Shown one piece after another: positions 3,218-42,985 of a stretch of DNA of 59,416 bases. The DNA is from Clostridia bacterium (lineage in GTDB: Bacteria > CBDUZB01 > JAGLHV01): positions 1-59,416 of the forward strand of contig DAOVVV010000014.1 in NCBI GenBank assembly GCA_030637025.1, in the 5' to 3' direction. Position 1 is the first letter of the stretch. Each line of letters starts with the position of its first letter. The notes beneath the pieces were generated by a model that made no database searches, was not told the DNA's origin, and worked only from the letters and a program-made list of their open reading frames with translations. A program made the translations under genes and the position numbers.

Positions 3218-3868
3218 TTAAATTAAATATTTATTTAGTTCCGGATTTATTTCCCTAATAAATTGCTTTAATATTTTTAAACTTTTATCTGGGCTCTGCT
3301 CAATAACAGCAGAAACTTTTACTAATGCACCTGCATTGCTTTTTGCCATTAATTTATTTTTCATCATTTGCCAACGTAAAGTTGTATAACTATTCGTTTG
3401 TAAACTTCCTATTTTAAAATAGTAAAGAACAAGTTTATCCTCTCTAGGACTTGTTGTTATAAATTTGGTAGCAAAAAAACTTTGTTGTTCATCTATTTCT
3501 ACTTTTTCTTTTTTTCTACTTGTAAGTCGCGAACCTTTCCCGGTTAAACAACTTTCCGGCAAATGGAAGGCTACTCGACTATCTTTGTAATAAACAATGG
3601 ACAAAAAAACTTTTTCTTCCTTAGAATTAATATATCTTCTAATTAGCACCTCTTCTGTCTCTAATATATTTTTAGTTTCATCATCTACTGAAATATATTC
3701 TCCCTTCCAGTCTCCAACATTCAAAGGTATTTTAGCAGATATGTTTACATTAGTTTTTTCTATATAAGGTCTACTCTGTACCCATAAAATAATACCTGCA
3801 AAAAAAACAAATATACCTATTAGAATAATATACCTTTTTTGAAATTTTTGCATCGTGATTTTTGTCAC
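3218..3868 (-). CDS. epsI: EpsI family exosortase-associated protein
   Basis: N-terminal TM, IPLNVGDWKG, FHLPESCLTGKG, VLYYF; directly downstream of the exosortase. Confidence 0.85.
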   Translation of the reverse strand: MTKITMQKFQKRYIILIGIFVFFAGIILWVQSRPYIEKTNVNISAKIPLNVGDWKGEYISVDDETKNILETEEVLIRRYINSKEEKVFLSIVYYKDSRVAFHLPESCLTGKGSRLTSRKKEKVEIDEQQSFFATKFITTSPREDKLVLYYFKIGSLQTNSYTTLRWQMMKNKLMAKSNAGALVKVSAVIEQSPDKSLKILKQFIREINPELNKYLI

Positions 3869-3869
3869 T

Positions 3870-4133
3870 CTCTTTCTTTGTCCCCTTTTTTATTTCTTTA
3901 CTCTGTGTCTTTTTCTTTTGTCTTTGTTTTGAATTTCGGATTTAATATTCGTTTTTTATTTCTTTAATTCATAACTTATAACTATTAACTCATAACTGTA
4001 GTTTCTGTCTATGGACTATGGACTGTCGACTATGGACTAAATCTGTTTTTGTTTTTAACTCATAACTAATAACTTATAACTTTCTGTTATTTGTTGCCTT
4101 TATCTATGGACTATCGACTGTGGACTATGGACT
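3870..4133. repeat. Mosaic intergenic repeat block (AGTCCAT and AGTTATA/G heptamer modules); includes one arm of a 117-bp inverted repeat
   Basis: 3951-4067 is the exact reverse complement of 22531-22647; heptamer modules at 4007-4039 and 4103-4133. Confidence 0.9.
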
Positions 4134-4967
4134 TTTGTTTGTCTTTCCCTTTCCCTCCAACTTCCCCCAACACAACCATAAACTAACAAAGGCAATAACA
4201 AATACTAAATATCCTGTGAAATCATGAAAAAGACCTTTGGTCATTTGACTCCCATAAATAAATACACCTAAAGATAATATAATTACTCGAATAATATTAG
4301 ACATTAAGGCAATCGGTATAGCTAAAGAAAAAAGTATAATTTTTTTGAACATAGTTGTTTTTGTTAAATAAGCAAAAATACTTCCCAAAGCCAACATTGA
4401 AATAAGGGAACGCAAACCACTGCAAGGATTTCCCACAACCAGACTGGCATTGGGAAAGAATATTTGAAACCCTTCATTCTTCATTGGTAATTTCATAAAT
4501 GTCTGTAAGATAAATACCGCACTCTTGGTAGCAAACATCTTCATCGGAAAACTGATGGCATTAATTGCTACTTTAGGAATAGGAATCATAAAAATCAAAA
4601 AAGCTAAAGGAAATAAAATTTTCTTAGTAATTTCCTTCCCATATAAAAACAAACTAATTCCAAAAACCAAAGACAAAATAGAAAAACCGCTTACAAAAAA
4701 TACTTCGGCTAACACACCCAACAGATGTATGAGTAGAGAAAAAATTATTAATCCTACTCCCCATAAATCATTTTTCTTGTTGATATTTTTTAATTGCTTT
4801 TTCCCAAGGAAAATTAAATATCCGGTAACAAAGGGAATCAAAAATCCATGCGAATAATAAGAGTCAGCGGCTACATATCTCTCGTAAAGCCAAACAAAAG
4901 TAGAACGATAAATTAATCCTATAAAAAATAACATCAACCCTAATTGAATAAATGTGTTTTTTTTCAT
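4125..4967 (-). CDS. xrt: Exosortase (EpsH-type transpeptidase)
   Basis: Multi-TM; YYSHGFLIP; catalytic Cys in NPCSGLRSL, Arg in NIIR, His in FHDFTG. Confidence 0.9.
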   Translation of the reverse strand: MKKNTFIQLGLMLFFIGLIYRSTFVWLYERYVAADSYYSHGFLIPFVTGYLIFLGKKQLKNINKKNDLWGVGLIIFSLLIHLLGVLAEVFFVSGFSILSLVFGISLFLYGKEITKKILFPLAFLIFMIPIPKVAINAISFPMKMFATKSAVFILQTFMKLPMKNEGFQIFFPNASLVVGNPCSGLRSLISMLALGSIFAYLTKTTMFKKIILFSLAIPIALMSNIIRVIILSLGVFIYGSQMTKGLFHDFTGYLVFVIAFVSLWLCWGKLEGKGKTNKSP

Positions 4968-4982
4968 CTATCTCCTCTCTAC

Positions 4983-5078
4983 AAAACAGTCACAAATAGT
5001 CATATACTCACTTCGTTCGTGTCACATATTGTCACACACTACCATCCTGTATAACTATGTTTGACTACTTACAACTAT
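4983..5078. repeat. Empty copy of the inverted AGTCA/TGACT arms that flank the four-helix-bundle gene at 11775-12146
   Basis: 4983-5036 resembles 11711-11765; 5041-5078 resembles 12180-12235. Confidence 0.8.
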
Positions 5079-5199
5079 TTTTTAACATTCCTTGACCTCT
5101 GTAAACCATTCCCCACAGGAAATACTATTTTCTCACCAATTTCCAAACTATTTTTTTATCTTACCCGCATGTTCTACAAATTTTTTCATAAAAAATACG

Positions 5200-6186
5200 C
5201 TAATTTTCCATATTTTCATTAATTTTAAGAGTCATATACCATTCTACCATTCGTTTAAATCCATCGGTCAAATCAATTTTCGGTTTAAAACCCAACTCCC
5301 TAATTTTATCAGAGGTGTGGTGTGTATCAGTATTAAATTTTTTCATTCTTTTAGCCGTAATAGGAAAATTATACCCGGTTACCTTAGCCAATATATCAAA
5401 TATATAGCCCATACTTAATGCCACCCCTAAAGGAATCCTAACCTTAGGGATATTTCTGGATAAATATTGGGCAATGATTTCTGCTATCCGGGTTGAGGTC
5501 ATCTGGGGATAATCTGAATAATTATAAATCTCCAGGCCTGATTTTAAATTTTCTAATAAAAAAATAGTGGCCTCTACTAAATTTTCCACATAACCAACTG
5601 ATTTAAGGTTTTCACCTTTTCCTACAAAGAGAAATCTTTTTTTGTAAATATTATTAATTAGATTAAACATATTAGCGTAGTTATACGGGCCAAAAACTAC
5701 GGTGGGGCGTAAAATAACCGCCTGACGGGAAGAATCTTCTTTAACCCAATTATAAACTACTTTTTCCGCGGCTAATTTAGATGCCCCATAATCATTAACC
5801 GGGGAAGGAGAAGTCTCCTCGGTACTAGGAATATTTTGTTCCCCATAAACAGCTACGGTACTATAAAAAATAAATTTCTTAATACCCAATTGGGACGCAC
5901 AACGAAGAATATTTGCTGTTCCTTCTTCATTAACGCGAAAAAATTCACTACGGGAAATACCAAAATCATGATGTTTTGCCGCTAAATTTATTATCACTTC
6001 TGCTCCATCTGCGGCTTTAAGAACATCCTGATAATTTAAAATGTCTCCTATAATAAAATGCCCCAATTCTTCTCTGGGGCCATAAGGATTAATATCTAAT
6101 CCTACAAGCTCGTATCCTTGGTCAATTAATTTCCGATTAAGAAAACCACCAATAAACCCGGCATTACCGGTGACTAAAATTTTCAT
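5200..6186 (-). CDS. NAD-dependent epimerase/dehydratase
   Basis: ILVTGNAGFIG, YSTVAVYG, YGASK. Confidence 0.9.
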   Translation of the reverse strand: MKILVTGNAGFIGGFLNRKLIDQGYELVGLDINPYGPREELGHFIIGDILNYQDVLKAADGAEVIINLAAKHHDFGISRSEFFRVNEEGTANILRCASQLGIKKFIFYSTVAVYGEQNIPSTEETSPSPVNDYGASKLAAEKVVYNWVKEDSSRQAVILRPTVVFGPYNYANMFNLINNIYKKRFLFVGKGENLKSVGYVENLVEATIFLLENLKSGLEIYNYSDYPQMTSTRIAEIIAQYLSRNIPKVRIPLGVALSMGYIFDILAKVTGYNFPITAKRMKKFNTDTHHTSDKIRELGFKPKIDLTDGFKRMVEWYMTLKINENMEN

Positions 6187-6218
6187 TCTTACCTCTTCAA
6201 GATAATTCTACCATATTT

Positions 6219-6306
6219 TTACAAATTTTTCCTCTCTTTTTTAATAAATATTTTCCAAAATTTATAATACAGCTTGTATGGAATCATTTTTTGAAATTGC
6301 TTTTTT
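6219..6306 (-). pseudogene. Relic 3' end of a second polysaccharide deacetylase allele
   Basis: Reads KQFQKMIPYKLYYKFWKIFIKKERKNL*, versus KQFLKQVIPYKIYYKLWEMFNKKEKEDL* at the end of 6542-7333. Confidence 0.75.
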
Positions 6307-6330
6307 TATAAAATATGTCTTTCCTGCGAA

Positions 6331-6471
6331 CAAACTGTGTCATAACTGCCGTTTTTGGCTTTGTCATTCCCGAAATCTTTTATCGGGAATCCATTTTCCG
6401 ACGATAATATTTTACTGGATCTCCGGGTCAAGCCCGAAGATGACAGAAAAAAGCAATTGTGACACAGTCTG
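6331..6471. mobile_element. MITE-like element inserted in the loop of a CCTGCGAAAGCAGG palindrome
   Basis: TIR CAAACTGTGTCATAA / TTGTGACACAGTCTG; GAA duplicated at 6328-6330 and 6472-6474; two internal hairpins; lone right end near 34835-34849. Confidence 0.75.
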
Positions 6472-6541
6472 GAAAGCAGGAATCCATAACCTTCAATACT
6501 TTTTTATCCTTTTCAGGATATTATAAAAAACTAATTATATC

Positions 6542-7333
6542 TTATAAATCTTCTTTCTCCTTCTTATTGAACATCTCCCAGAGTTTATAATATATTTTAT
6601 ACGGAATTACTTGTTTCAAAAACTGTTTTATCATAAACTTTATCAGTTGTCTATAATAAAAATATTTTCCCCCGGAAACTATTTCCTGAAAATATTCTAT
6701 ATCGATATTATTAAAAATAGGTATCCGTCCAAACTCTACGATTTCGTCCCCTTCACTAACAAAATTAATCCCGGGTTTAGAAGTAAAAAAATAACGATAC
6801 CCACATTCTTCCAATAATGCTTTTATCTCTTTAGGCTTCTCTCCCCGGGGCAAAGATAAGGCCAGAGGATTTTCACCTGTTTCTCTGACAATAATATCTT
6901 TTGATGATAACAATTCCTGCCTGATTTCTTCTTCACTTAACCGGGTCAATAAATTATGACTTTTAGTGTGCGATTGAATAGAAAATCCTTTTTCTTTCAA
7001 CCCCTGTATTTGAACCCAGGTCATATATCCCTTATTTCCGATATAATCAGTAGTAATAAAGTGAATACTTTTTAAACCATATTTTTGTAATATTGGCAAA
7101 GCAACTATATAATCAGTATCAAACCCATCATCAAAAGTAACCATAACCGGTTTTATATCCCCGGATAATCCTTTAGCTAATTCATTTATGGTTACCGCTG
7201 TATATCCCTGTTTTTTTAGATATTCCATCTGCAGTATAAATGTTTCCTTCGTTACTACATAGCGGTTACGGCTTACATTGTTTTCTGCAATTTCATGATA
7301 CATTAATACCGGAATTATCATCCCCTGCTCCAA
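6542..7333 (-). CDS. Polysaccharide deacetylase (CE4, PgaB/IcaB-like)
   Basis: PVLMYHEI, VTFDDG, QSHTKSH. Confidence 0.9.
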   Translation of the reverse strand: MEQGMIIPVLMYHEIAENNVSRNRYVVTKETFILQMEYLKKQGYTAVTINELAKGLSGDIKPVMVTFDDGFDTDYIVALPILQKYGLKSIHFITTDYIGNKGYMTWVQIQGLKEKGFSIQSHTKSHNLLTRLSEEEIRQELLSSKDIIVRETGENPLALSLPRGEKPKEIKALLEECGYRYFFTSKPGINFVSEGDEIVEFGRIPIFNNIDIEYFQEIVSGGKYFYYRQLIKFMIKQFLKQVIPYKIYYKLWEMFNKKEKEDL

Positions 7334-8268
7334 TTACGAACATCTATCAAACAAATAGCTCTGGCAATGCCAAAAACAAAAAACAATAATGTAAGCGGTA
7401 TTATATATCTAATCCTTTTTTTTTCAAAATTAACCTTCATTGCCCAGATAAAAGAGACGATAAACATTGTTACTACTGCCAACACCATCAATTTAATCTT
7501 CACTAATAAAATCGAAAGACAAAAAACAAAAATACAAAGTAAAAAAAACAACGGCAAACTTAAACTTTTAAAATATTTTTTTTTATTTTTTGATTTAAAA
7601 AACACCCGCAAAACATCTTTACCATACCATAATTGTTTTTTAAAAAAAGTTATTAATGTTTCAGCAAAACCTAAATGATATGAACCTATAGCTTTATTGG
7701 ATACTATTTTATATCCTTTATCCTTGATTCTATAGCAAATATCCGAATCTTCACATACATTTAACTGTTCATCAAACCCTCCGACAGCATCAAAAGATTC
7801 CTTTTTAATTATTAAATTACCACTTTGAATCCATTCTACTTCGCATCGATCTTTTCTGGTTTTTTTATTAAATTCCCAAGCTCTGGAAACCCAGGACCCT
7901 TTACCGTACAGCTTATAATTAGAACCTGTAGCTCCTACTTGTTTATCACTCAATTCTCTCAATGCTTCTTGTAACCATTCTTTTGCTACCACACAATCTG
8001 CATCCACAAAGGCAAAAATATTCCCCTGTGCTATTGTCACCCCAAAATTTCTCAATCCTGCAATATTAATATCAGTCTTTATAAAAACTCTCACCTCTAA
8101 ATCTTTAGCTGCTTCAACAGTTTTATCGGTAGACCCGTTATCTACTACAATTATTTCATAATCACATCCACTGCTGTCTACTTTTTGAATGGATTCGACA
8201 CACCTTTTAATATTTGATTCCTCATTCAATGCAGGAATAATGATTGAGACAAAAGGAATATCACTCAT
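7318..8268 (-). CDS. Glycosyltransferase family 2
   Basis: SIIIPALNEE, VVDNGSTD, FVDAD, GGFDE..EDSD; C-terminal TMs. Confidence 0.9.
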   Translation of the reverse strand: MSDIPFVSIIIPALNEESNIKRCVESIQKVDSSGCDYEIIVVDNGSTDKTVEAAKDLEVRVFIKTDINIAGLRNFGVTIAQGNIFAFVDADCVVAKEWLQEALRELSDKQVGATGSNYKLYGKGSWVSRAWEFNKKTRKDRCEVEWIQSGNLIIKKESFDAVGGFDEQLNVCEDSDICYRIKDKGYKIVSNKAIGSYHLGFAETLITFFKKQLWYGKDVLRVFFKSKNKKKYFKSLSLPLFFLLCIFVFCLSILLVKIKLMVLAVVTMFIVSFIWAMKVNFEKKRIRYIIPLTLLFFVFGIARAICLIDVRNWSRG

Positions 8269-8290
8269 AAAAAAATTCCTTTATCAATAG

Positions 8291-9436
8291 CTATCTTTCC
8301 GGTTTCCATATCATCTCCTCTTTCCCTACTAAAAACCGTATAATACCAAACAATATCCCCAGATTAGTAACGCAAAAATAGAAGGGAATATAAAAAAGTC
8401 TACTTTTTCTTTGCATCCTTTGCAATATATATCCAATTAAAGCAAAAGAATAAAATATCACTTGCATCAAAGCAATAATTTTATAAATCTGAGCATTGTT
8501 TAACAATAAAATATTGGCAAACACAATAAACAGCAAAAAAACAGGCACTGTCAAACGTAATATCTTATGAGAAAATAATTCCAGAGAAAATATCCCATAT
8601 TTAAAAAAATTAAACAATGTTTTCATATAAAATAAACCCTTAATATTTCTTAGAGCAATGCGTGCTCTTTTTGATAATTCGTTTTTATTTTTACTTACCG
8701 TCTCTTCTACACACACTGCTTCTGTTTCATAAACACAGTAATATCCTTGTTTTTTAACCATCAAGGGTGAAATAAAATCATCAGCCAGTTCTTTGGAAGG
8801 AAATTTATAAAGTTCCTTTCTTATTGCATAAATGGCTCCTGAAACCGCCATAAGATTTCCTAACCTGCTTTCTTTTCTTCTCAACATTACTTCATACCGC
8901 CAATACAATCCTTCTCCCTCTCCCACCATAGAATTTTTAGGATTAATATACCTTAAAAAACCACCCACACACCCTACCCGTGAATCATTGAAATTTCGCA
9001 CTAATTTCTTAATTACATCTTTATTATACATTCCCGTGGCATCAGAAAAAACAAGCATATCTCCCCGTGTTAACTTCATTGCTTCATTTCTACAGGCTGT
9101 CTTACCCAAACGTTTTGAGAAAACACATAGTTTTACACCCTGTAAAGCAAATTTTTGAACAATCTCATTAGTTTTATCGGTAGAGCCATCAGAGACAACA
9201 ATAATTTCTAATTTATCCTTTGGATAATCTAAAGCTAAACTATTCTTTATTTTTTCTTCAATTGCTTTTTCCTCATTGTAGGCAGCAATCACTAAGCTTA
9301 CATTAGGGATAATCTCCCCTTTTTTAATTGTTTTTGACATAAAGATAGTCAATATAATCAAAAGCAAAGGATAACCAAAATATGTATAAAAAACACCCAC
9401 TATTAAAAACCAAAAAAGGAATTCAGCTATATTCAT
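8291..9436 (-). CDS. Glycosyltransferase family 2 (membrane-bound)
   Basis: VIAAYNEE, VSDGSTD, VSGAIYAIRKELY, LADDF. Confidence 0.9.
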   Translation of the reverse strand: MNIAEFLFWFLIVGVFYTYFGYPLLLIILTIFMSKTIKKGEIIPNVSLVIAAYNEEKAIEEKIKNSLALDYPKDKLEIIVVSDGSTDKTNEIVQKFALQGVKLCVFSKRLGKTACRNEAMKLTRGDMLVFSDATGMYNKDVIKKLVRNFNDSRVGCVGGFLRYINPKNSMVGEGEGLYWRYEVMLRRKESRLGNLMAVSGAIYAIRKELYKFPSKELADDFISPLMVKKQGYYCVYETEAVCVEETVSKNKNELSKRARIALRNIKGLFYMKTLFNFFKYGIFSLELFSHKILRLTVPVFLLFIVFANILLLNNAQIYKIIALMQVIFYSFALIGYILQRMQRKSRLFYIPFYFCVTNLGILFGIIRFLVGKEEMIWKPER

Positions 9437-9512
9437 ATTACTCTAATCCTTCATCTTTCATTATTTGCAATCTTTTATCTTTTATCTCTTGTCTTCCTGC
9501 CCTCACAAACGG

Positions 9513-9607
9513 CATCATAAATAGTCATATACGCACTTCTTTCCCATCATACCTTGTCATAAACTATGTTTGACTATTTTTTGACTATTGTCTGACTACT
9601 TATGACT
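9513..9607. repeat. Second empty copy of the AGTCA/TGACT inverted arms
   Basis: 9562-9607 matches 12190-12235 at 43/46 nt; left arm ATAGTCATATAC...TTGTCATA directly abuts it. Confidence 0.85.
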
Positions 9608-9625
9608 ATTATTGGTTTTATTCAC

Positions 9626-9663
9626 TATATATTTTTATATACTTCTCTGCCATTTTTTTTGAA
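9626..9663 (-). repeat. 38-bp exact duplicate of the 3' end of the GT4 gene (10476-10513)
   Basis: TATATATTTTTATATACTTCTCTGCCATTTTTTTTGAA at both sites; this copy reads SKKMAEKYIKIYSE*. Confidence 0.9.
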
Positions 9664-9703
9664 AATTAACTTTTTAATCTTTTTCTTAAATTTTTCAATT
9701 ACA

Positions 9704-10447
9704 TTAAACTTGTTTTGTTTTAGTAGCAACAAGAATTATTGTTTCTCTTAAATATTTTAGAAAATTATATCGGCGAATAAGTTTTGTATATATTATTTCT
9801 AAATAAGTTGTAATTGCTGAAAAAGTCAAAGTTTTAGGAGAACCTTCGAAAAAAAAATTTTCAACAATTCGAAGTTCAGAATTTTTAAGCAATTTTCTCA
9901 ATTTCAAAAAAGTATTTGCCCGATAATATGTAGGAAATATATCGTCCTGCTCAATTTGGTAAAGTTGTTTATTCATAAGTGTATGAAACCAATAAGGTGT
10001 AAATTTAGATGTCAGAGATCTCCATCCTATCAAATTAGGAGTCATCATAATAAAAATACCCCCCCTCTTTAGTATTCTTGAAACTTCTTTGAAAAATTTA
10101 TAAGGATATTCTAAATGCTCAATTAACTCCTGACAAACAACAATATCTATTGAATTATCAATTAAAGGAATTTCATAAACATTACTCACCATTTTTTTAT
10201 GTATCGTTTGATTTTTTTTAATTTCAGTTGATAAATCTACTCCTATTGCTAATTTAACTCTTTCCTTATAATTAATTGGTGTTGCCTTCCCTCTCCCGCA
10301 TCCCGCATCAAGTAAAATACTTGATGATGATAAATATTGCTCTAGGAATTTTTTATATGGGATATTTCTTCCCTCATAAACAGGATAATATTTTTTGATA
10401 ATATTCCAACAGTCTTTTTTTGCTTTAACCCTTGCAAATATACTCAT
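9704..10447 (-). CDS. Class I SAM-dependent methyltransferase
   Basis: LLDAGCGRG, GVDLS, ELIEHL, RILKRGG..TPN. Confidence 0.9.
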   Translation of the reverse strand: MSIFARVKAKKDCWNIIKKYYPVYEGRNIPYKKFLEQYLSSSSILLDAGCGRGKATPINYKERVKLAIGVDLSTEIKKNQTIHKKMVSNVYEIPLIDNSIDIVVCQELIEHLEYPYKFFKEVSRILKRGGIFIMMTPNLIGWRSLTSKFTPYWFHTLMNKQLYQIEQDDIFPTYYRANTFLKLRKLLKNSELRIVENFFFEGSPKTLTFSAITTYLEIIYTKLIRRYNFLKYLRETIILVATKTKQV

Positions 10448-10449
10448 TT

Positions 10450-11643
10450 TTAAGCAATCCTTTCATAAATTGATTTATATATTTTTATATACTTCTCTGC
10501 CATTTTTTTTGAAGAAAATTCATTTATAACTTTTTCATAGCCATTTTGAGCTAAAAAACTTGCTTTTTCCTTGTCTTTCAAAAGACCTACGATTAAATCA
10601 GCTAATTTTTTCTCATCCCCAGGCTCCACAAGTAATCCCGTGTAACCATCTTTAATTATCTCAGGAATTGCTCCCACTCTGGTAGCAACAATTGGTTTCC
10701 TGGCAGCCATTGCTTCAAGTAATACTATAGGCATCCCCTCTTTTAAAGAGGACATCACAAACACATCTATAATATCAAGTATCTCGGGAATATCCCTTCT
10801 TATCCCGGTAAATATCACCTTGTTTTCCAATCTCAAACTCCCAACTTTAAGTTTCAGATCTTTCATAAGAGGACCATCACCTACAATTAAAAATTTAGTA
10901 TTGGGAAAAACAGTTAAAATTTTTTTCGCTGCTTCTAAGAAATAAATATGTCCTTTACTATTAGCTAATCGGCCTATAATTCCGACTACTTTTTCATCCT
11001 TTCTAATTCCAAATTCTTCTCTGATTTTGACTCTTCTGTCCTTCGCCATCCGTTCTCCGCCATCTGGCTCTATTTTGCCTTTGTGCCCCAATGCCTCTGT
11101 ACCTTGTTTCTGGTACTCTTCCTCATTTCCTATATCAATTCCATTATCAATAACTAAAATCTTTTTTTTAGAAATTCCACACTCAATAATATTATGTTTC
11201 AATTCCTCTGAAATTGCTATCACTTTATTAAATCTCTTAAGTAATAATTTATCTACTCTTTCATAAAACTTCAATTTTAGACTAATCGAATACCAGGTGT
11301 GACAGGTAGCAACATTTTTAATCCCCATATTTAAACTACTCAATAATCCATAAAAATTAGATTTATATCCGTGCGAATGAATAATATCTATTTTATTTTC
11401 TCTCAAAAAATATCTTATACTTAAGATTGTTTTAATATCAAATCTACCTTTGCAATCAAAAATTTCTACAGGCAAATTACATTTATGAGCATTTTGGGCA
11501 ACTTCAAGATGTGGATTATTATAATTTTTAAAAACCCCAACATAGGCCCCCAAACCTTGTTTTATTTGTTCCCGGGCTAAAGTAACCACAACCCTCTCCG
11601 CCCCAAAAAAACCCCCACTACTTATTAAGTGAAGAACCCTCAT
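10450..11643 (-). CDS. Glycosyltransferase family 4 with an in-frame repeat-derived insertion
   Basis: GGFFGAER, GRLANSKG, EGMPIVLLEAMA; insertion QGTEALGHKGKIEPDGGERMAKDRR. Confidence 0.9.
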   Translation of the reverse strand: MRVLHLISSGGFFGAERVVVTLAREQIKQGLGAYVGVFKNYNNPHLEVAQNAHKCNLPVEIFDCKGRFDIKTILSIRYFLRENKIDIIHSHGYKSNFYGLLSSLNMGIKNVATCHTWYSISLKLKFYERVDKLLLKRFNKVIAISEELKHNIIECGISKKKILVIDNGIDIGNEEEYQKQGTEALGHKGKIEPDGGERMAKDRRVKIREEFGIRKDEKVVGIIGRLANSKGHIYFLEAAKKILTVFPNTKFLIVGDGPLMKDLKLKVGSLRLENKVIFTGIRRDIPEILDIIDVFVMSSLKEGMPIVLLEAMAARKPIVATRVGAIPEIIKDGYTGLLVEPGDEKKLADLIVGLLKDKEKASFLAQNGYEKVINEFSSKKMAEKYIKIYKSIYERIA

Positions 11644-11665
11644 TTTTTACCCTCTAAACCCTGCT

Positions 11666-11767
11666 ATAGTCATAATTAAAATCGTCATATATAGTCTCAT
11701 GGTTATATTAAAAACCGTCATACATAGTCATATACTCGCTTTACTCGTGTCATAATATTGTCATAAC
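11666..11767. repeat. Downstream arm (AGTCA units) of four-helix-bundle cassette 1
   Basis: GTCATA recurring with about 10-11 nt period; inverted relative to 12180-12235. Confidence 0.8.
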
Positions 11768-11774
11768 AGAATTA

Positions 11775-12146
11775 TTATACAATAGCTGTTTTGCCTATAC
11801 AATTAATATAGTTATTGATTTTTATTTGTAATTGTTTGTATTTACTCAAGAAATGGTTTAAAATATTCTCTGTAATATAATTACGTTTTTTACTAAAAAG
11901 CATAAAATGTTTTATTTCTACCAGAGAACCCCTTGCCTGACGACAAAATTGAATATTCTCCTTATAATGAAAACGCCCATAGCCTTCAGCAATATTGGCT
12001 CCAACAGAGGTAACAGCTCTTCTTAATTGCGAAATTACATTAAATTTTTCATCAGAAGGAAATTTGTCTGTTAAATCATATATCCAACCTGCTAAATCTT
12101 CTGCTAATTTATATATTTCTAAATCATCAAAATCCTTTATCATCAT
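11775..12146 (-). CDS. Four-helix-bundle protein (23S rRNA IVS-protein / Avd-like family)
   Basis: FDDLEIYK, FPSDEKF, SQLRRAVTSVGANIAEGYGR, ARGSLVE. Confidence 0.9.
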   Translation of the reverse strand: MMIKDFDDLEIYKLAEDLAGWIYDLTDKFPSDEKFNVISQLRRAVTSVGANIAEGYGRFHYKENIQFCRQARGSLVEIKHFMLFSKKRNYITENILNHFLSKYKQLQIKINNYINCIGKTAIV

Positions 12147-12179
12147 CGTTCCCTTTATTATTAAATCCTTTATATTTTT

Positions 12180-12235
12180 ACCATTCTTTAACTATGTTTG
12201 ACTATCTTTTGACAATTGTTTGACTACTTATGACT
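12180..12235. repeat. Upstream arm (TGACT units) of four-helix-bundle cassette 1
   Basis: AACTATGTTTGACTATCTTTTGACAATTGTTTGACTACTTATGACT; overlaps the stop codon of the upstream gene. Confidence 0.85.
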
Positions 12236-13580
12236 TGTTGTTTATTTTGCCATTAGCTATTATTTCTCCTCTGCTATTCACCATCTTTTCCTGATTCATA
12301 ATAATATATGCACGCGTTGTAATTCCTAAAAATATCCAAAAATAAGCGCCTAAAGGAAGAAAACTCCACCTGTCACCAAAGCCATTGGTGAGCATAACTG
12401 AAATCACACAAGCGGCAAAACCCAACCCAATTGCTTTAAAGAAATCATCATCTGCTTCCTTATATAATCTCCAGGCAGTAATAAAAGCTCTATAACACAA
12501 AAAAAGGAATGTTCCCAATCCTAAAACACCTAATTCGGCTAAAAGTTTTAGATAAAAATTATGGGTATCTCTCCATTTTCCCGATTGAAATGTATTAAAT
12601 CCTTTTCCTATAAGCGGAGAACTCATAAACATTCCCCAGGCTGTGTTCCACAATTCAACCCTTACGGCTGCGGAATGTTCCAATTCTCCTCCTTCAGTTC
12701 TTGTCATTTCTATTCTTTCTTTCACGACAGGAGGAACTAACGAACGCCAAAAAATAAAAAACAAAATTAACAAAAGCAGTATCTTTTTATCTTTAACCAA
12801 TCCAATAAATAAAATTCCGCCAAGAAAAGCTATATAAGCACCCCTTGAAAGGGTATAGATTAAACAATAACCTGCAAGTGAAATACTCCCTAACAAAATC
12901 ATTTTTCTTATTTTAGACTTGTCAAACAAAAAAAAGGCTATTAATATAAAAACAAAATGGGCAAAAAAAGCACCATAATGATTGGCCCCCAGATAAACAA
13001 ACAATCCGGTCATCATATTTCTAGCTTTATGGGAAAAATGATATATATTCATCCACTGAAGATTATTATAAAAATAGAAACTAACCCCCAATATGCCTAT
13101 AACCATTAAACAACTAAGTAATTTAAGGGTTTTTCTATCCTTAATGGCATAAACAGTTAAAAACCATACCAATGGTAATAACATATAGTTTTTCCATTCC
13201 AAAAGATAGGGATTTCTTAAATCAAAAGACAAGCCAGTACTTAATGAACCATTAATAAACCCCACAAAAGTAACAATAACTATCAACATTATCGGCAAAT
13301 TTAAGTCTGTTTTTTCAACTAAAGATGTATTTTCTGAGACACCTCCAGTCTTATTCCCTTTTCGCATAAACCAGCCAATCAGTATTACCCCAAACATTAT
13401 ATCGTTTAAATCTTTTCCTAAAGGAAAATCCTGAATTTTCTGAAATATATTTTGATAAGGTAAAAGAGGAAAAAGAAATAATACTCCAATTTTAGGACTC
13501 CAAAACATTGATAAAAGAACAATAATCATACTCGTATAATAAATAATTAATGGTACATATTGAGCAAGTCCTAAACCCAT
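12228..13580 (-). CDS. O-antigen ligase / Wzy polymerase family protein
   Basis: Multi-TM; TLSRGAY, SAAVRVELW, PLIGKG, THNFYLKLLAELG. Confidence 0.85.
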   Translation of the reverse strand: MGLGLAQYVPLIIYYTSMIIVLLSMFWSPKIGVLFLFPLLPYQNIFQKIQDFPLGKDLNDIMFGVILIGWFMRKGNKTGGVSENTSLVEKTDLNLPIMLIVIVTFVGFINGSLSTGLSFDLRNPYLLEWKNYMLLPLVWFLTVYAIKDRKTLKLLSCLMVIGILGVSFYFYNNLQWMNIYHFSHKARNMMTGLFVYLGANHYGAFFAHFVFILIAFFLFDKSKIRKMILLGSISLAGYCLIYTLSRGAYIAFLGGILFIGLVKDKKILLLLILFFIFWRSLVPPVVKERIEMTRTEGGELEHSAAVRVELWNTAWGMFMSSPLIGKGFNTFQSGKWRDTHNFYLKLLAELGVLGLGTFLFLCYRAFITAWRLYKEADDDFFKAIGLGFAACVISVMLTNGFGDRWSFLPLGAYFWIFLGITTRAYIIMNQEKMVNSRGEIIANGKINNKS

Positions 13581-13589
13581 ATTAGCCTC

Positions 13590-14156
13590 TCATTTTTTTT
13601 CATTCTTCCAAAAATATTCTATTAATTGTTCTTTCCAAGTTTCACGAGGACCTTTTATATTAAGTGTCTTCCATTTTTTAACACATTTTTTTTTATATTC
13701 ATCCATTGTACAAATCGCTCTTGCAGGAACCCCGGCTACTACAGTATTAGGAGGCACATCCTTACTAACTACTGCCCCTGCTCCCACTACAGAATTAGGA
13801 CCAATAGTTACATTTGGTAAAATAATACTATTAACTCCAATAAAAGAGTTATCTTTAATCTCTATTTTTCCAAACACATTCAAATCTAATATCTCTTCTC
13901 TAAACATCCCTGATCCTCCATCATGAGTTATAAACATAACTCCTTTTGCAATTGCACAATGATTCCCTATTTTAACCAAGTAGGGCTCGCTGCCAAAATC
14001 TCTTATTAAAATTCTATTGTTTTTTCCTACAAAATAGCCCTTTTTTCTAAAATATTCCTCAATAGTATATTCATTATATTTTCGCATCTCCATTTTGTTT
14101 ATAAAATCTTTAAACAGCTGTTTAATAGTTTTAATCATATTATTCCACCGTTCCAT
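13590..14156 (-). CDS. Hexapeptide-repeat (LbH) acyltransferase
   Basis: EPYLVKIG, FITHDG, ILPNVTIGPNSVVGAGAVV..VAGVPAR. Confidence 0.9.
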   Translation of the reverse strand: MERWNNMIKTIKQLFKDFINKMEMRKYNEYTIEEYFRKKGYFVGKNNRILIRDFGSEPYLVKIGNHCAIAKGVMFITHDGGSGMFREEILDLNVFGKIEIKDNSFIGVNSIILPNVTIGPNSVVGAGAVVSKDVPPNTVVAGVPARAICTMDEYKKKCVKKWKTLNIKGPRETWKEQLIEYFWKNEKK

Positions 14157-20456: not shown

Positions 20457-20550
20457 ATAGTCCATAGTCCACAGTCGATAGTCCATAGACAAAGACAAAA
20501 ATAAAGTCAAAATTCAAAACAAAAGATAAAAAACTACAGACAAAGAATAT
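20457..20550. repeat. AGTCCAT heptamer module plus A-rich linker, downstream of four-helix-bundle gene 2
   Basis: Exact 31-mer AGTCCATAGTCCACAGTCGATAGTCCATAGA at 20459, 23923, 25602 and (reverse complement) 4103. Confidence 0.9.
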
Positions 20551-20573: not shown

Positions 20574-20927
20574 TTATTTAAGTGAATTACGCAATCCTTG
20601 AAGCATTTTAATAATCTCTTGAAGTTCATTATACAATTTTTTAAACTTATTTTCATTAATTATCTTTCGCTTTTTACTTAAATAAAGACAAGAAACAACT
20701 TCAATTGCTGACCTAATAGCATAACCAATAAATAGTCTAAACTCCGCATTTGTCTGACCAGTTGACCCTTCTGCAACATTTAAAGCAATTGAATCCGCTG
20801 CTCGCTTAATTTGCGAAGTCATAATATACAACTCTTCTTTAGGAAAATCTCTGGTTAATTCATGAATTTGAAAACTAAATTCTACAGATTTTCTCCACAC
20901 TTCTAACTTCTCAAACTTAAAGGCCAT
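20574..20927 (-). CDS. Four-helix-bundle protein (IVS / Avd-like), second paralogue
   Basis: FKFEKLEVWRKS, FPKEELY, SQIKRAADSIALNVAEGS, AIRSAIE. Confidence 0.9.
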   Translation of the reverse strand: MAFKFEKLEVWRKSVEFSFQIHELTRDFPKEELYIMTSQIKRAADSIALNVAEGSTGQTNAEFRLFIGYAIRSAIEVVSCLYLSKKRKIINENKFKKLYNELQEIIKMLQGLRNSLK

Positions 20928-22473: not shown

Positions 22474-22820
22474 ACAGTCCATAGTCCATAGACAGAAACT
22501 ACAGTTATGAGTTAATAGTTATAAGTTATAAGTTATGAGTTAAAAACAAAAACAGATTTAGTCCATAGTCGACAGTCCATAGTCCATAGACAGAAACTAC
22601 AGTTATGAGTTAATAGTTATAAGTTATGAATTAAAGAAATAAAAAACAAATACTAAATTCAAAATAAAAAAATAACTACTAGATTCCTGCTTCCGCAGGA
22701 ATGACAGACTAAAAACAAAAACTACCCTCCCTTACCTTAATCCTTCCTCCTTATCCGCTTGAGGCGGAGCGGACAGGAATTTTTTTTAAATTCCTGGATT
22801 CCTGCTTCCGCAGGAATGAC
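22474..22820. repeat. Mosaic repeat block: heptamer modules, 117-bp inverted-repeat arm, two GATTCCTGC..GCAGGAATGAC palindromes, a TCCGC..GGCGGA element
   Basis: Internal duplication 22474-22528 / 22573-22627; palindromes at 22682-22705 and 22797-22820. Confidence 0.9.
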
Positions 22821-23921: not shown

Positions 23922-24003
23922 TAGTCCATAGTCCACAGTCGATAGTCCATAGACAAAGACAAAGCAACTAAAAACTTATAAGCAGAGCAAGCTCTGCGAC
24001 TAC
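23922..24003. repeat. AGTCCAT module followed by a GTAG-type REP-like hairpin
   Basis: 31-mer at 23923-23953; GCAGAGCAAGCTCTGCGACTAC ending at 24003. Confidence 0.8.
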
Positions 24004-25600: not shown

Positions 25601-25926
25601 TAGTCCATAGTCCACAGTCGATAGTCCATAGATAGAGACAAAGAATAAATAATAACTAAATTCAAAATCTAAAATTCTAAATTCAAAACAAAGACAACTA
25701 CTGGATTCCTGCTTCCGCAGGAATGACCCGCCTTATCCGCCTAAGGCGGAGCGGACACTCGCTTTGCTCCTGAAAAATAACTTATTCGCAGGCTGAAGCC
25801 TGCGGCTACCTAAAAACATTCTATCCGATGGAATGACAAAATATTTTAAATCAACAAAACTAATTTAAAAAACACAATAGATTCCTGCTTTCGCAGGAAT
25901 GACAGAATTTAAAACATGGAATGACA
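25601..25926. repeat. Mosaic repeat block
   Basis: 31-mer at 25602; palindromes at 25704-25727 and 25880-25903; TCCGCCTAAGGCGGA; GTAG-type hairpin at 25787-25809. Confidence 0.85.
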
Positions 25927-32221: not shown

Positions 32222-32410
32222 AAAAAATAAATCCGAAATTCTAAACAAAGGATAAATCCCCCTAACCCCCTTTTCCAAAGGGGGGAACTCAATGAGGACT
32301 GTCGCTTTGCTCCAGCAAAACAAAAGACAAAAAATAGTCCATAGTCCACAGTCCATAGATAAAGACAACAAAATAAATTATAAATCCGAAATAAAGATAA
32401 AAAACTAACT
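32222..32410. repeat. Mosaic repeat block
   Basis: CCCCCTTT..AAAGGGGG hairpin; GACTGTCGCTTTGCTCCAG (inverted copy at 57428-57446); AGTCCAT module at 32334-32359. Confidence 0.75.
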
Positions 32411-42707: not shown

Positions 42708-42985
42708 TTAACCAATCCAACGAATAAAACCAATCTAAACTAATTCCACCGTCTTTAATCTAAATCCCCCTACAAAGGGGGAACATTGTTTTGTCTTTAT
42801 TTTTTATTCTTTTGTCTTTATCTGTTATCTGTAATCTATGGACTAATTTTTGTCTTGAGTTCTTTAACTTTGTGCCTCTGTGCCTTGATGCCTTTGTGCC
42901 TGTCTTTGTCTGTAATCTGTGGACTATGGACTGTCGACTATGGACTTTTGTTTCTTTTTTTAATCTATGGATTATCTGATGCCTT
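42708..42985. repeat. Mosaic repeat block (9-mer, 8-mer TGCCTTTG, 7-mer TGGACTA, C/G hairpin)
   Basis: 9-mer at 42708-42755; 8-mer at 42873-42904; 7-mer at 42916-42945. Confidence 0.85.

Follow-up and report, generated by a model that had tools for sequence, protein, structure and literature searches.

The contig DAOVVV010000014.1, analysed over its whole length of 59,416 nucleotides (nt) and called the window below, belongs to a 2.36-Mb metagenome-assembled genome (MAG) of a Clostridia bacterium (GCA_030637025.1; 33.5% G+C, 77 contigs, 97.8% complete). From position 1 to about 27 kb every larger open reading frame (ORF) lies on the minus strand, and the domain matches of these genes identify an operon of the exopolysaccharide/exosortase type. 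Between a Wzy-like polymerase gene and a family 4 glycosyltransferase (GT4) gene of this operon, in sense orientation, sits a small gene of the PF05635 family (11775-12146), enclosed by two arms of short tandem units that are inverted relative to each other; gene and arms together are called the cassette here. It is confirmed, far beyond chance, that this gene lies inside inverted arms that have gene-less counterparts. We read gene and arms as one unit.

The unit core of the 5′ arm is TAGTCAA, with sense-strand GTCA motifs (TGAC on the plus strand) starting at 12234, 12224, 12213 and 12202, at spacings of 10, 11 and 11 nt. This arm overlaps the stop codon of the Wzy-like gene (12228-12230). 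The 3′ arm begins 8 nt past the stop codon of the PF05635 gene and carries sense TGAC motifs at 11763, 11752, 11730, 11720, 11687 and 11672, spaced by 11, 22, 10, 33 and 15 nt; the last two of these units are probably the remnant of a second left module of the repeat. A first-pass annotation of this DNA had described a 10-11-nt period, which is exact in the upstream arm but looser in the downstream one. The outer ends of the two arms can pair, GUCAUAAGUAGUC with GACUAUGUAUGAC, at 12 of 13 positions. There is a possible AAC repeat at the gene borders of the filled copy, which at 3 nt is too short to serve as evidence for target-site duplication.

A profile was built from five gene-less copies of the repeat, excluding the filled copy, and searched against the whole genome. 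It matches the filled copy in two halves, 11715-11766 (profile positions 4-54) and 12190-12235 (54-99), which meet at one profile position (54) around the gene. In a search of the whole genome, segment 12190-12235 proved 93.5% identical over 46 nt (43/46, E 7e-13) to 9562-9607 within a gene-less copy. The first-pass annotation had placed the gene between inverted AGTCA/TGACT arms, had counted the same 43 of 46 identities for the right arm and had seen filled and empty forms of one element; direct reading and the split of the profile around the gene bear out all three. Its two empty copies are both real, at 9510-9614 and 4987-5082 (given as 9513-9607 and 4983-5078), but they belong to a family of 25 loci rather than forming a pair.

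In the first of these copies the 5′ arm runs straight into the 3′ arm, the two meeting at a hairpin tip. Folded as sense RNA, it reaches -22.7 kcal/mol (z -2.7 against shuffles), and the second copy -29.0 kcal/mol (z -3.4). The gene-less junction is a small palindrome, CATAGTTTATG, and its place corresponds to the facing inner ends of the arms in filled relatives. Among the 25 loci of the family (profile E <= 1e-3) six are full-length, and the others mostly hold the left module alone, which ends at profile position 56 and is joined to other repeat modules. The family is largely uniform in polarity. Like the filled copy, 19 loci run antiparallel (plus strand) to both flanking genes and three to the sole flanking gene on their contig, while two lie in divergent spacers and one is reversed (22 against 1, binomial 6e-6). 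Three other genomes of the same genus contain 12, 10 and 11 arm-profile matches.

Table 1. Features of the cassette, its gene-less copies and the surrounding operon in the window.
Feature	Positions	Strand	Remarks
DUF3485 gene	3218-3868	minus	
Exosortase EpsH gene	4125-4967	minus	
Gene-less copy, shorter middle	4987-5082	minus	profile match; 20 nt upstream of exosortase start (4967)
Epimerase gene	5200-6186	minus	
Family 2 glycosyltransferase (GT2) gene	8291-9436	minus	
Gene-less copy	9510-9614	minus	profile E 4.5e-27 (copy itself in profile); GT2/methyltransferase spacer
Methyltransferase gene	9704-10447	minus	
GT4 glycosyltransferase gene	10450-11643	minus	
Extra GTCAT-type units (11687, 11672) past profile match	11666-11700	minus	read directly
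Downstream (3′) arm	11715-11767 (whole 11666-11767)	minus	inverted units; profile 4-54, E 4.6e-6
PF05635 gene, cassette ORF	11775-12146	minus	Pfam match
Spacer, 33 nt, arm to start codon	12147-12179	minus	Shine-Dalgarno-like AAGGGA at 12150-12155
Upstream (5′) arm	12180-12235	minus	four units; profile positions 54-99, E 7e-6
Wzy-like polymerase gene	12228-13580	minus	
Hexapeptide transferase gene	13590-14156	minus	
Second PF05635 gene of the window	20574-20927	minus	120.3 bits; about 33% identical to the first

Inverted arms are a recurrent feature of PF05635 genes. For each gene, the 220 nt upstream were aligned to the reverse complement of the 220 nt downstream (scores +2/-3/-6/-3), and alignments scoring at least 30 were counted as arms; this test misses looser arms, and the window's cassette gene itself scores only 21. 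The first set covered 12 genomes whose families are unrelated; of its 28 PF05635 genes, 11 have arms far above shuffles (z 6.6-26). A second set of 80 loci, one genome per species, was found with the single cassette protein as query and therefore represents the nearest relatives of the gene, not a random sample of the family. In this set arms accompany 34/73 PF05635 genes, as against 6/139 adjacent genes and 4/313 other genes (Fisher 5e-24); among other genes of at most 200 amino acids (aa) the count is 3/144, and the background in the window's own genome is 11/813. With both sets pooled (L055-L057 and L020 left out as duplicates of L008, L017, L025 and L012), 44 of 100 testable genes, from many phyla, are armed. 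Counted by single-linkage clusters, the armed share is 27/48 at 60% identity and 15/26 at 50%. The survey of flanks was a check named in the first-pass annotation, and its outcome, 44/100 against the 4/313 of non-adjacent neighbours, speaks for the arrangement described there.

The arms share a layout across the family. Their units vary by subfamily (GGTTCATT, GGTTATT, GTGATTA, TTAGAGC, CAGGATA and others), and among the 34 armed genes of the second set the period is 8 in 19, 7 or 14 in ten, and 9-12 in five. The earlier argument that a period of 10-11 nt would set sites on one face of the DNA helix does not extend to the family, in which most arms have a period of 7-8 nt. By median, the arms stop 27.5 nt short of the start codon and resume 9 nt past the stop codon. 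In 31/34 cases the 5′ arm has more G than C, which within an inverted repeat amounts to a head-to-head polarity on both strands. Both neighbours lie on the strand of the PF05635 gene in 59/71 cases, and ten loci scanned with Rfam showed none in ribosomal RNA (rRNA). Further, the arms mirror each other even in the order of unit variants (33/35 identical positions at L084, for example), which fits selection for pairing and copying of one end equally well. We found no published description of inverted tandem arms around non-ribosomal PF05635 genes, with the proviso that supplements may list such contexts.

The closest homologues carry the same arrangement. The nearest relatives of the cassette protein are encoded in two Omnitrophota MAGs (76-77% identity), an Edwardsbacteria MAG (68%) and three Planctomycetota MAGs (62-69%), all others being at most 52% identical. 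Five of these have both flanks (L059, L060, L061, L062 and L064; 62-77% identity), and each shows 3-5 TAGTCA-type (GTCA) units upstream at about 11 nt, then a ribosome-binding site, with 2-5 TGAC units directly downstream of the gene and both neighbours on the same strand. When GTCA in the 100 nt upstream and TGAC in the 100 nt downstream are counted together, the window scores 9, the five relatives 9, 8, 6, 6 and 4, and the median of 100 PF05635 genes is 0; the reverse arrangement gives 0-1. In the genomes of these five relatives the arm pattern has 0-1 matches, so beyond this genus only the cassette carries such arms. Because the same combination of gene and arms occurs in Omnitrophota, Edwardsbacteria and Planctomycetota, the two move between lineages together. 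Judged from these sequences, the simplest history has gene and arms transferable as one unit, with the gene-less form originating and multiplying within this genus.

The layout might instead be a coincidence, with the gene happening to lie between a left and a right module that are common in intergenic DNA and independent of each other. Many repeat families of 30-60 copies populate the genome, the spacers of the operon are packed with such modules, and the left and right modules of the present repeat occur apart and in other combinations. Even so, a chance arrangement leaves unexplained why the closest homologues in other phyla, which lack dispersed copies, share the arm unit, the layout and the polarity. 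It also sits badly with the enrichment across the family and with a profile match that breaks at a single position exactly around the gene. We regard this explanation as very improbable.

The cassette ORF encodes 123 aa and matches PF05635 at 111.9 bits (cut-off 33.8). Its predicted structure is a four-helix bundle (mean predicted local distance difference test score 95.5; helices 10-26, 37-56, 61-87 and 93-116), which resembles the family members Xcc0516 (2GSC; template modelling (TM) score 0.85-0.94, phmmer E 4e-10) and BT_0352 (2RLD; TM 0.74-0.85). The model also resembles Avd, the accessory protein of diversity-generating retroelements (DGRs), with TM 0.77/0.85 to 4DWL at 8-9% sequence identity, and likewise the DGR ribonucleoprotein 8UB7. 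This agrees with the structural kinship to Avd put forward in the first-pass annotation. The published motif of PF05635 proteins is GxxRxxxSxxxNxxE (Zhang et al. 2014, PMC3936711). Its R-x3-S-x3-N-x2-E portion is present here as R43, S47, N51 and E54, all (near-)invariant in an alignment of 23 sequences that excludes the partial or interrupted L010, L012, L020, L021 and L028; the leading G is absent in the cassette protein.

The family is large, being found in 33 of 76 genomes from diverse families and often in several copies, and we know of no function for it outside DGRs. Individual members have been noted in other settings. For example, 18 PF05635 genes lie in cas loci, such as between cmr3 and cmr2 (Zhang et al., PMC3936711), and in a Riemerella capsule locus (PMC13688083) another separates wbpP from ugd, in both cases without comment on the flanks. 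The Riemerella primers that abut the PF05635 gene (PMC13688083, Table 2) contain TGTAAAACTGTAAAAT-type repeats, known to us from the primers alone, whose letters seem to resemble the GTAAAA-unit arms of L121. Another genome, G020, has 16 partial PF05635-like matches (profile positions about 10-95, frames of 73-114 aa) in divergent adjacent pairs, for example C7:104028-104554; these represent a different, shorter relative of PF05635 with an arrangement of its own.

The best-known homes of PF05635 ORFs are the intervening sequences (IVSs) of 23S rRNA. In Leptospira and Coxiella, such ORFs are enclosed by stem-forming terminal inverted repeats, much as in the cassette. IVSs are sporadically distributed, which suggests horizontal transfer, and ORF-less forms occur at the same kind of site (PMC4990558; bioRxiv 10.1101/2024.02.27.582315). 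The cassette differs in its location, which is not a helix of rRNA but the gap between the Wzy-like and GT4 genes of a protein-coding operon (an Rfam scan of 3500-26000 gave no match); its arms are arrays of short tandem units, and its gene-less copies occupy about 25 loci. Its terminal stem, 13-15 bp in the gene-less copies and 12/13 in the filled one, is also shorter than the 28-bp stem of the ORF-bearing Coxiella IVS, which is cut by RNase III (PMC4990558).

A second likeness is to repetitive extragenic palindrome (REP) doublet hairpins, or REPINs, and their REP-associated tyrosine transposases (RAYTs). Reportedly, RAYTs are single small genes between inverted copies of a short repeat, and REPINs are said to be gene-less hairpin doublets scattered in intergenic spacers with fixed polarity. 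The cassette gene, too, stands between inverted copies of a repeat, which elsewhere in the genome forms scattered hairpins without a gene, yet its protein is a four-helix bundle and not a Y1 HUH transposase, and its arms are tandem arrays instead of single palindromes. Since it is not in rRNA and its protein is not a Y1 transposase, the cassette is a member of neither the IVSs nor the RAYT/REPIN systems. A RAYT as mobiliser of the cassette was rejected, since the genome has three Y1_Tnp genes and none has flanks related to the arms; the earlier description of a transposase-less element holds, none being encoded in it. One of these genes (IS200/RAYT-like, 330 aa; G000:C26:35962-36951) is preceded by two copies of the palindrome AAGTAAACTATAAAAATCCATAGTTTACTT, which looks like a REP-type arrangement unrelated to the cassette arms.

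Foldback elements have inverted arms made of tandem units, and miniature inverted-repeat transposable elements (MITEs) are non-coding derivatives that keep only the inverted ends. The gene-less copies resemble MITEs in retaining nothing else than inverted ends (terminal inverted repeats of 13-15 bp); the cassette, for its part, encodes no transposase, and its one candidate for a target-site duplication is the possible 3-nt AAC repeat at the gene borders. As for DGRs, the reverse transcriptase profile RVT_1 has 0 matches in the whole genome (97.8% complete); without a reverse transcriptase the cassette is not a DGR, and that identification was rejected.

We propose that the cassette is an IVS-type element that resides in operon spacers instead of rRNA and has MITE- or REPIN-like gene-less derivatives, an interpretation to which we give an even chance. 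Under this proposal the cassette would be transcribed through operon read-through; no promoter-like site was found upstream of the cassette gene on the sense strand. By analogy with 23S rRNA IVSs, the outer arm ends would then pair in the RNA and close the ORF into a long stem-loop, whose terminal stem would be a candidate site for RNase III, an enzyme encoded in this genome. A pentameric, Avd-like protein may recognise the repeated arm units. Avd itself is pentameric, holds an RNA stem-loop and works next to a duplex of template-flanking sequences (bioRxiv 10.1101/2023.10.23.563531). We infer that the PF05635 protein may bind the arms, because the unit varies with the subfamily and one clade keeps its unit across four phyla, because the protein is the sole conserved product of the cassette, and because its relative Avd, a pentamer, grips an RNA stem-loop. 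Recognition of the unit by the protein is also our proposed reason why the unit changes with the protein subfamily. Three roles are in play for the arms, which may act as an RNA stem, as arrays bound by the protein or as ends of a DNA element.

An RNA stem has local evidence in its favour. Sense RNA gives the better fold in all seven full gene-less copies (six in this genome and one in genome G001 of the same genus), at a mean of -24.8 kcal/mol against -16.4 for antisense RNA. Their common terminal stem, 13-15 bp long, contains two G.U pairs, and one copy carries a double change from C-G to U-A. Also in favour are the two copies that outdo their shuffles, the pairing of these ends in the filled copy, the fixed polarity relative to transcription, the RNase III gene of this genome and the RNase III-cut stem of the Coxiella IVS, whose ORF is of the same family.

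Several results weigh against the proposal as a whole. The seven gene-less copies are related by descent, so their agreement counts roughly once. Taken whole, the filled element does not fold better than shuffled sequences (z -1.5). In the six closest cassettes, cognate arms pair no better than non-cognate ones (-38.1 against -35.6 kcal/mol). Across 42 arm pairs, 42 mismatches are wobble-compatible in sense RNA as against 52 in antisense, with 101 transversions; given this absence of a wobble bias, nothing marks the RNA strand across the family. A stem of 13 bp is also short for RNase III. The first-pass idea that the arms pair in the mRNA has local support, from a terminal stem of 13-15 bp that favours the sense strand in 7/7 related copies; both family-wide tests were negative.

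Others of these adverse results concern the cassette as an element. About 13 of its loci have the left module only, and the right module is also found alone; the cassette is therefore modular. In the family, 56 of 100 PF05635 genes fall below the arm threshold, including the second gene of the window, whose inverted arms are unconvincing (arm score 27, A-rich). No gene-less copies were found in the genomes of the closest homologues. In the three same-genus genomes the cassette gene has no orthologue (best 37% identity), and window DNA from 9400-13600 matches them in repeats only. Contigs of other samples that cover 3500-13800 show no joint that skips from 11767 to 12180, as an empty allele would; the presence/absence polymorphism anticipated for the locus was not seen, and three other samples carry the filled form (one without differences over 11576-12279, two with partial coverage). 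Joints that do appear in other samples (for example 5019 to 12190, side 24) fit other repeat copies. At the orthologous sites of two gene-less copies, the same-genus genomes have a flanking gene that is 86-88% identical, and synteny or the contig ends at the repeat.

Mobility might instead operate at the level of DNA. The arms would then be terminal inverted repeats of the foldback kind, made of tandem units, the PF05635 protein would serve as an end-binding or mobility factor, and the gene-less copies would have been moved in trans by the logic of RAYTs and REPINs, with RNA pairing as a by-product. Joint transfer of gene and arms across phyla, the dispersal of gene-less copies over 25 loci, the mirroring of the arms down to the order of unit variants (as at L084), arm mismatches without strand bias and a constant head-to-head polarity, in which the G-rich strand comes 5′ on either strand (31/34), are all as such a mechanism would have it. 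Copies also cluster near the genes, as the window contig, with 2.5% of the genome, holds 3/25 cassette loci (binomial 0.024) and 8/46 of the heptamer arrays described below (binomial 2e-5). Moreover, PF05635 ORFs in the rRNA genes of the candidate phyla radiation (CPR) occupy sites otherwise held by homing endonucleases (bioRxiv 10.1101/2024.02.27.582315), and a mobile IVS was already proposed by Ralph and McClelland 1993 (cited in PMC4990558). The protein is one difficulty, for no catalytic motif and no nuclease or recombinase fold is known for the PF05635 family, and Avd lies about 40 A from the active site and is not believed to do chemistry (bioRxiv 10.1101/2023.10.23.563531). A target-site duplication would measure three nucleotides at most, and no presence/absence polymorphism was seen. 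Gene-less copies persist in genomes without the cognate gene, and a fixed polarity relative to transcription is at least as easily explained by a role in RNA. Overall, we think mobility at the DNA level fairly unlikely.

Tandem arrays similar to the arms, and lacking a gene, are abundant in these genomes. Arrays of the heptamers GGACTAT/CGACTGT number 46 in the window's genome, nearly all of them intergenic between co-directional genes, with an orientation bias of 26:12. On the window contig they lie at 4008-4038, 4103-4133, 20457-20490, 22561-22585, 23924-23948, 25603-25627, 32334-32361 and 42921-42945. Four genomes of the genus have 68, 216, 59 and 35 pattern hits of the GGACTAT type. In G001, arrays of TTAGAGC and ACAGGAT give a further 139 and 206 hits, with 0 in the other three genomes, and these two heptamers form the arms of two G001 PF05635 genes. 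Cyanobacterial short tandemly repeated repetitive (STRR) sequences are arrays of the same kind. Heptamer arrays (TAACTGA) are also known in Beggiatoaceae, Cyanobacteria and Bacteroidetes, and an unknown RNA-binding regulator has been proposed for them by MacGregor 2015 (PMC4679880); the words '23S', 'intervening' and 'four helix' are absent from that paper, and the PF05635 family is not mentioned. The arms resemble the TAACTGA arrays in being short tandem units in spacers, oriented to the downstream gene and patchily distributed. The described arrays are direct and not inverted around a gene, and the arms of the window's gene have a period of 10-11 nt where TAACTGA and STRR arrays have 7. The arms of another PF05635 gene, L006, have a CAGTTAA/TAACTG unit.

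In two contig regions of G001 (L168, G001:C103:24000-43000; L169, G001:C7:1-19184), nearly every spacer contains (AGAGCTA)n followed by (TATCCTG)n, with 5-61 copies. The minus-strand genes there include a tail-sheath-like protein, PorV, a two-component pair and AAA and VWA proteins. One PF05635 gene on these contigs has a histidine-kinase gene on one side and a sigma-54 regulator gene on the other, the array lying downstream of it and an inverted copy upstream. The genus-typical heptamer is absent among the matches listed for these contigs, which may be a separate replicon, another organism or a binning error.

Could the PF05635 protein be a transcriptional or post-transcriptional regulator that acts on short tandem units? 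Spacer arrays would then be its targets, its own gene would be bracketed for autoregulation, and the cassette would be a regulatory module and not a selfish element. The G001 arrays, which share their units with resident PF05635 arms and on two contigs fill nearly every spacer, fit this well, as do the intergenic position and orientation bias of heptamer arrays and the regulator proposed by MacGregor. Across genomes, sampled by the first 20 kb of contigs 1-3 or by spaced stretches of single-contig genomes (18-60 kb per genome; L263-L265 left out, as they were chosen as gene-bearing contigs), arrays of period 7-8 occur in 7/11 genomes with a PF05635 gene against 0/19 without (Fisher 1.6e-4), a period range chosen after the arm survey. 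With periods of 6-12 the same test gives p 0.053. A replication with 10 kb per genome was underpowered and not significant (3/20 against 1/20, p 0.6; 8 arrays against 1); pooled, the counts are 10/31 against 1/39 (p 0.0016), with unequal sampling. G002 (89% complete) shares the genus-wide TATGGACT-type (GGACTAT-type) arrays although a PF05635 gene was not found in it, and in G029 a TAACTG-type arm unit occurs at the PF05635 gene only, like the private arms of the closest relatives; both weigh against a link between genes and arrays, which we consider no more than suggestive. The second PF05635 gene of the window has a heptamer array (20457-20490) just downstream and thus on one side only, binding sites alone need no inverted layout, and the two array-rich G001 contigs may belong to another replicon or organism. 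On balance, regulation as the primary role seems to us quite unlikely.

A broader view would join these strands. PF05635 proteins may be the specificity factors of a widespread repeat system, in which each subfamily recognises its own unit of 7-11 nt and its gene sits between inverted arrays of that unit. The intergenic tandem arrays (STRR, TAACTGA-type and those of this genus) would be gene-less targets or offspring, and a ribosomal IVS would be a cassette that landed in an rRNA helix. We put this forward tentatively, as possible rather than probable. If the gene normally forms a unit with mirrored, subfamily-specific arrays, its odd positions in operons would be explained as cassette insertions. 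The protein would gain a concrete candidate ligand, its own arms, and the origins of ribosomal IVSs and of intergenic heptamer arrays, both open for about 30 years, would become one question. In practical terms, such arms can pass for CRISPR-like or simple repeats in annotation, and they break metagenome assemblies.

Small genes among repeats are found elsewhere in the genome. Two 95-aa GIY-YIG genes (L163 and L164; G000:C23:2049-2336 and C4:17050-17337) are flanked by the genome's most abundant repeat, the palindrome TGTCATTCCTGCGAAAGCAGGAATGACA, whose 14-mers occur about 45-54 times. With them the genome has two instances of small genes placed among dispersed hairpin repeats. Further, an ABC-transporter ATPase gene (L162, G000:C42:3515-4327) is flanked by a perfect inverted repeat of 69 nt and also by inverted copies of two heptamer arrays, of the AAGGCAC and GGACTAT types.

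The operon itself contains other repeats. The spacer between the exosortase and DUF3485 genes (3869-4124) is a mosaic of two direct ATAACT-type array copies and a heptamer array; some of its parts are found again on many contigs and at 22474-22658 (98% over 142 nt). The methyltransferase gene is bracketed by a direct repeat of 38 nt with 100% identity (9626-9663 and 10476-10513), of which one copy falls inside the GT4 gene, at its 3′ end, and the other in the spacer that follows the methyltransferase gene. The repeat looks like what a recent insertion or duplication of the methyltransferase gene would leave behind.

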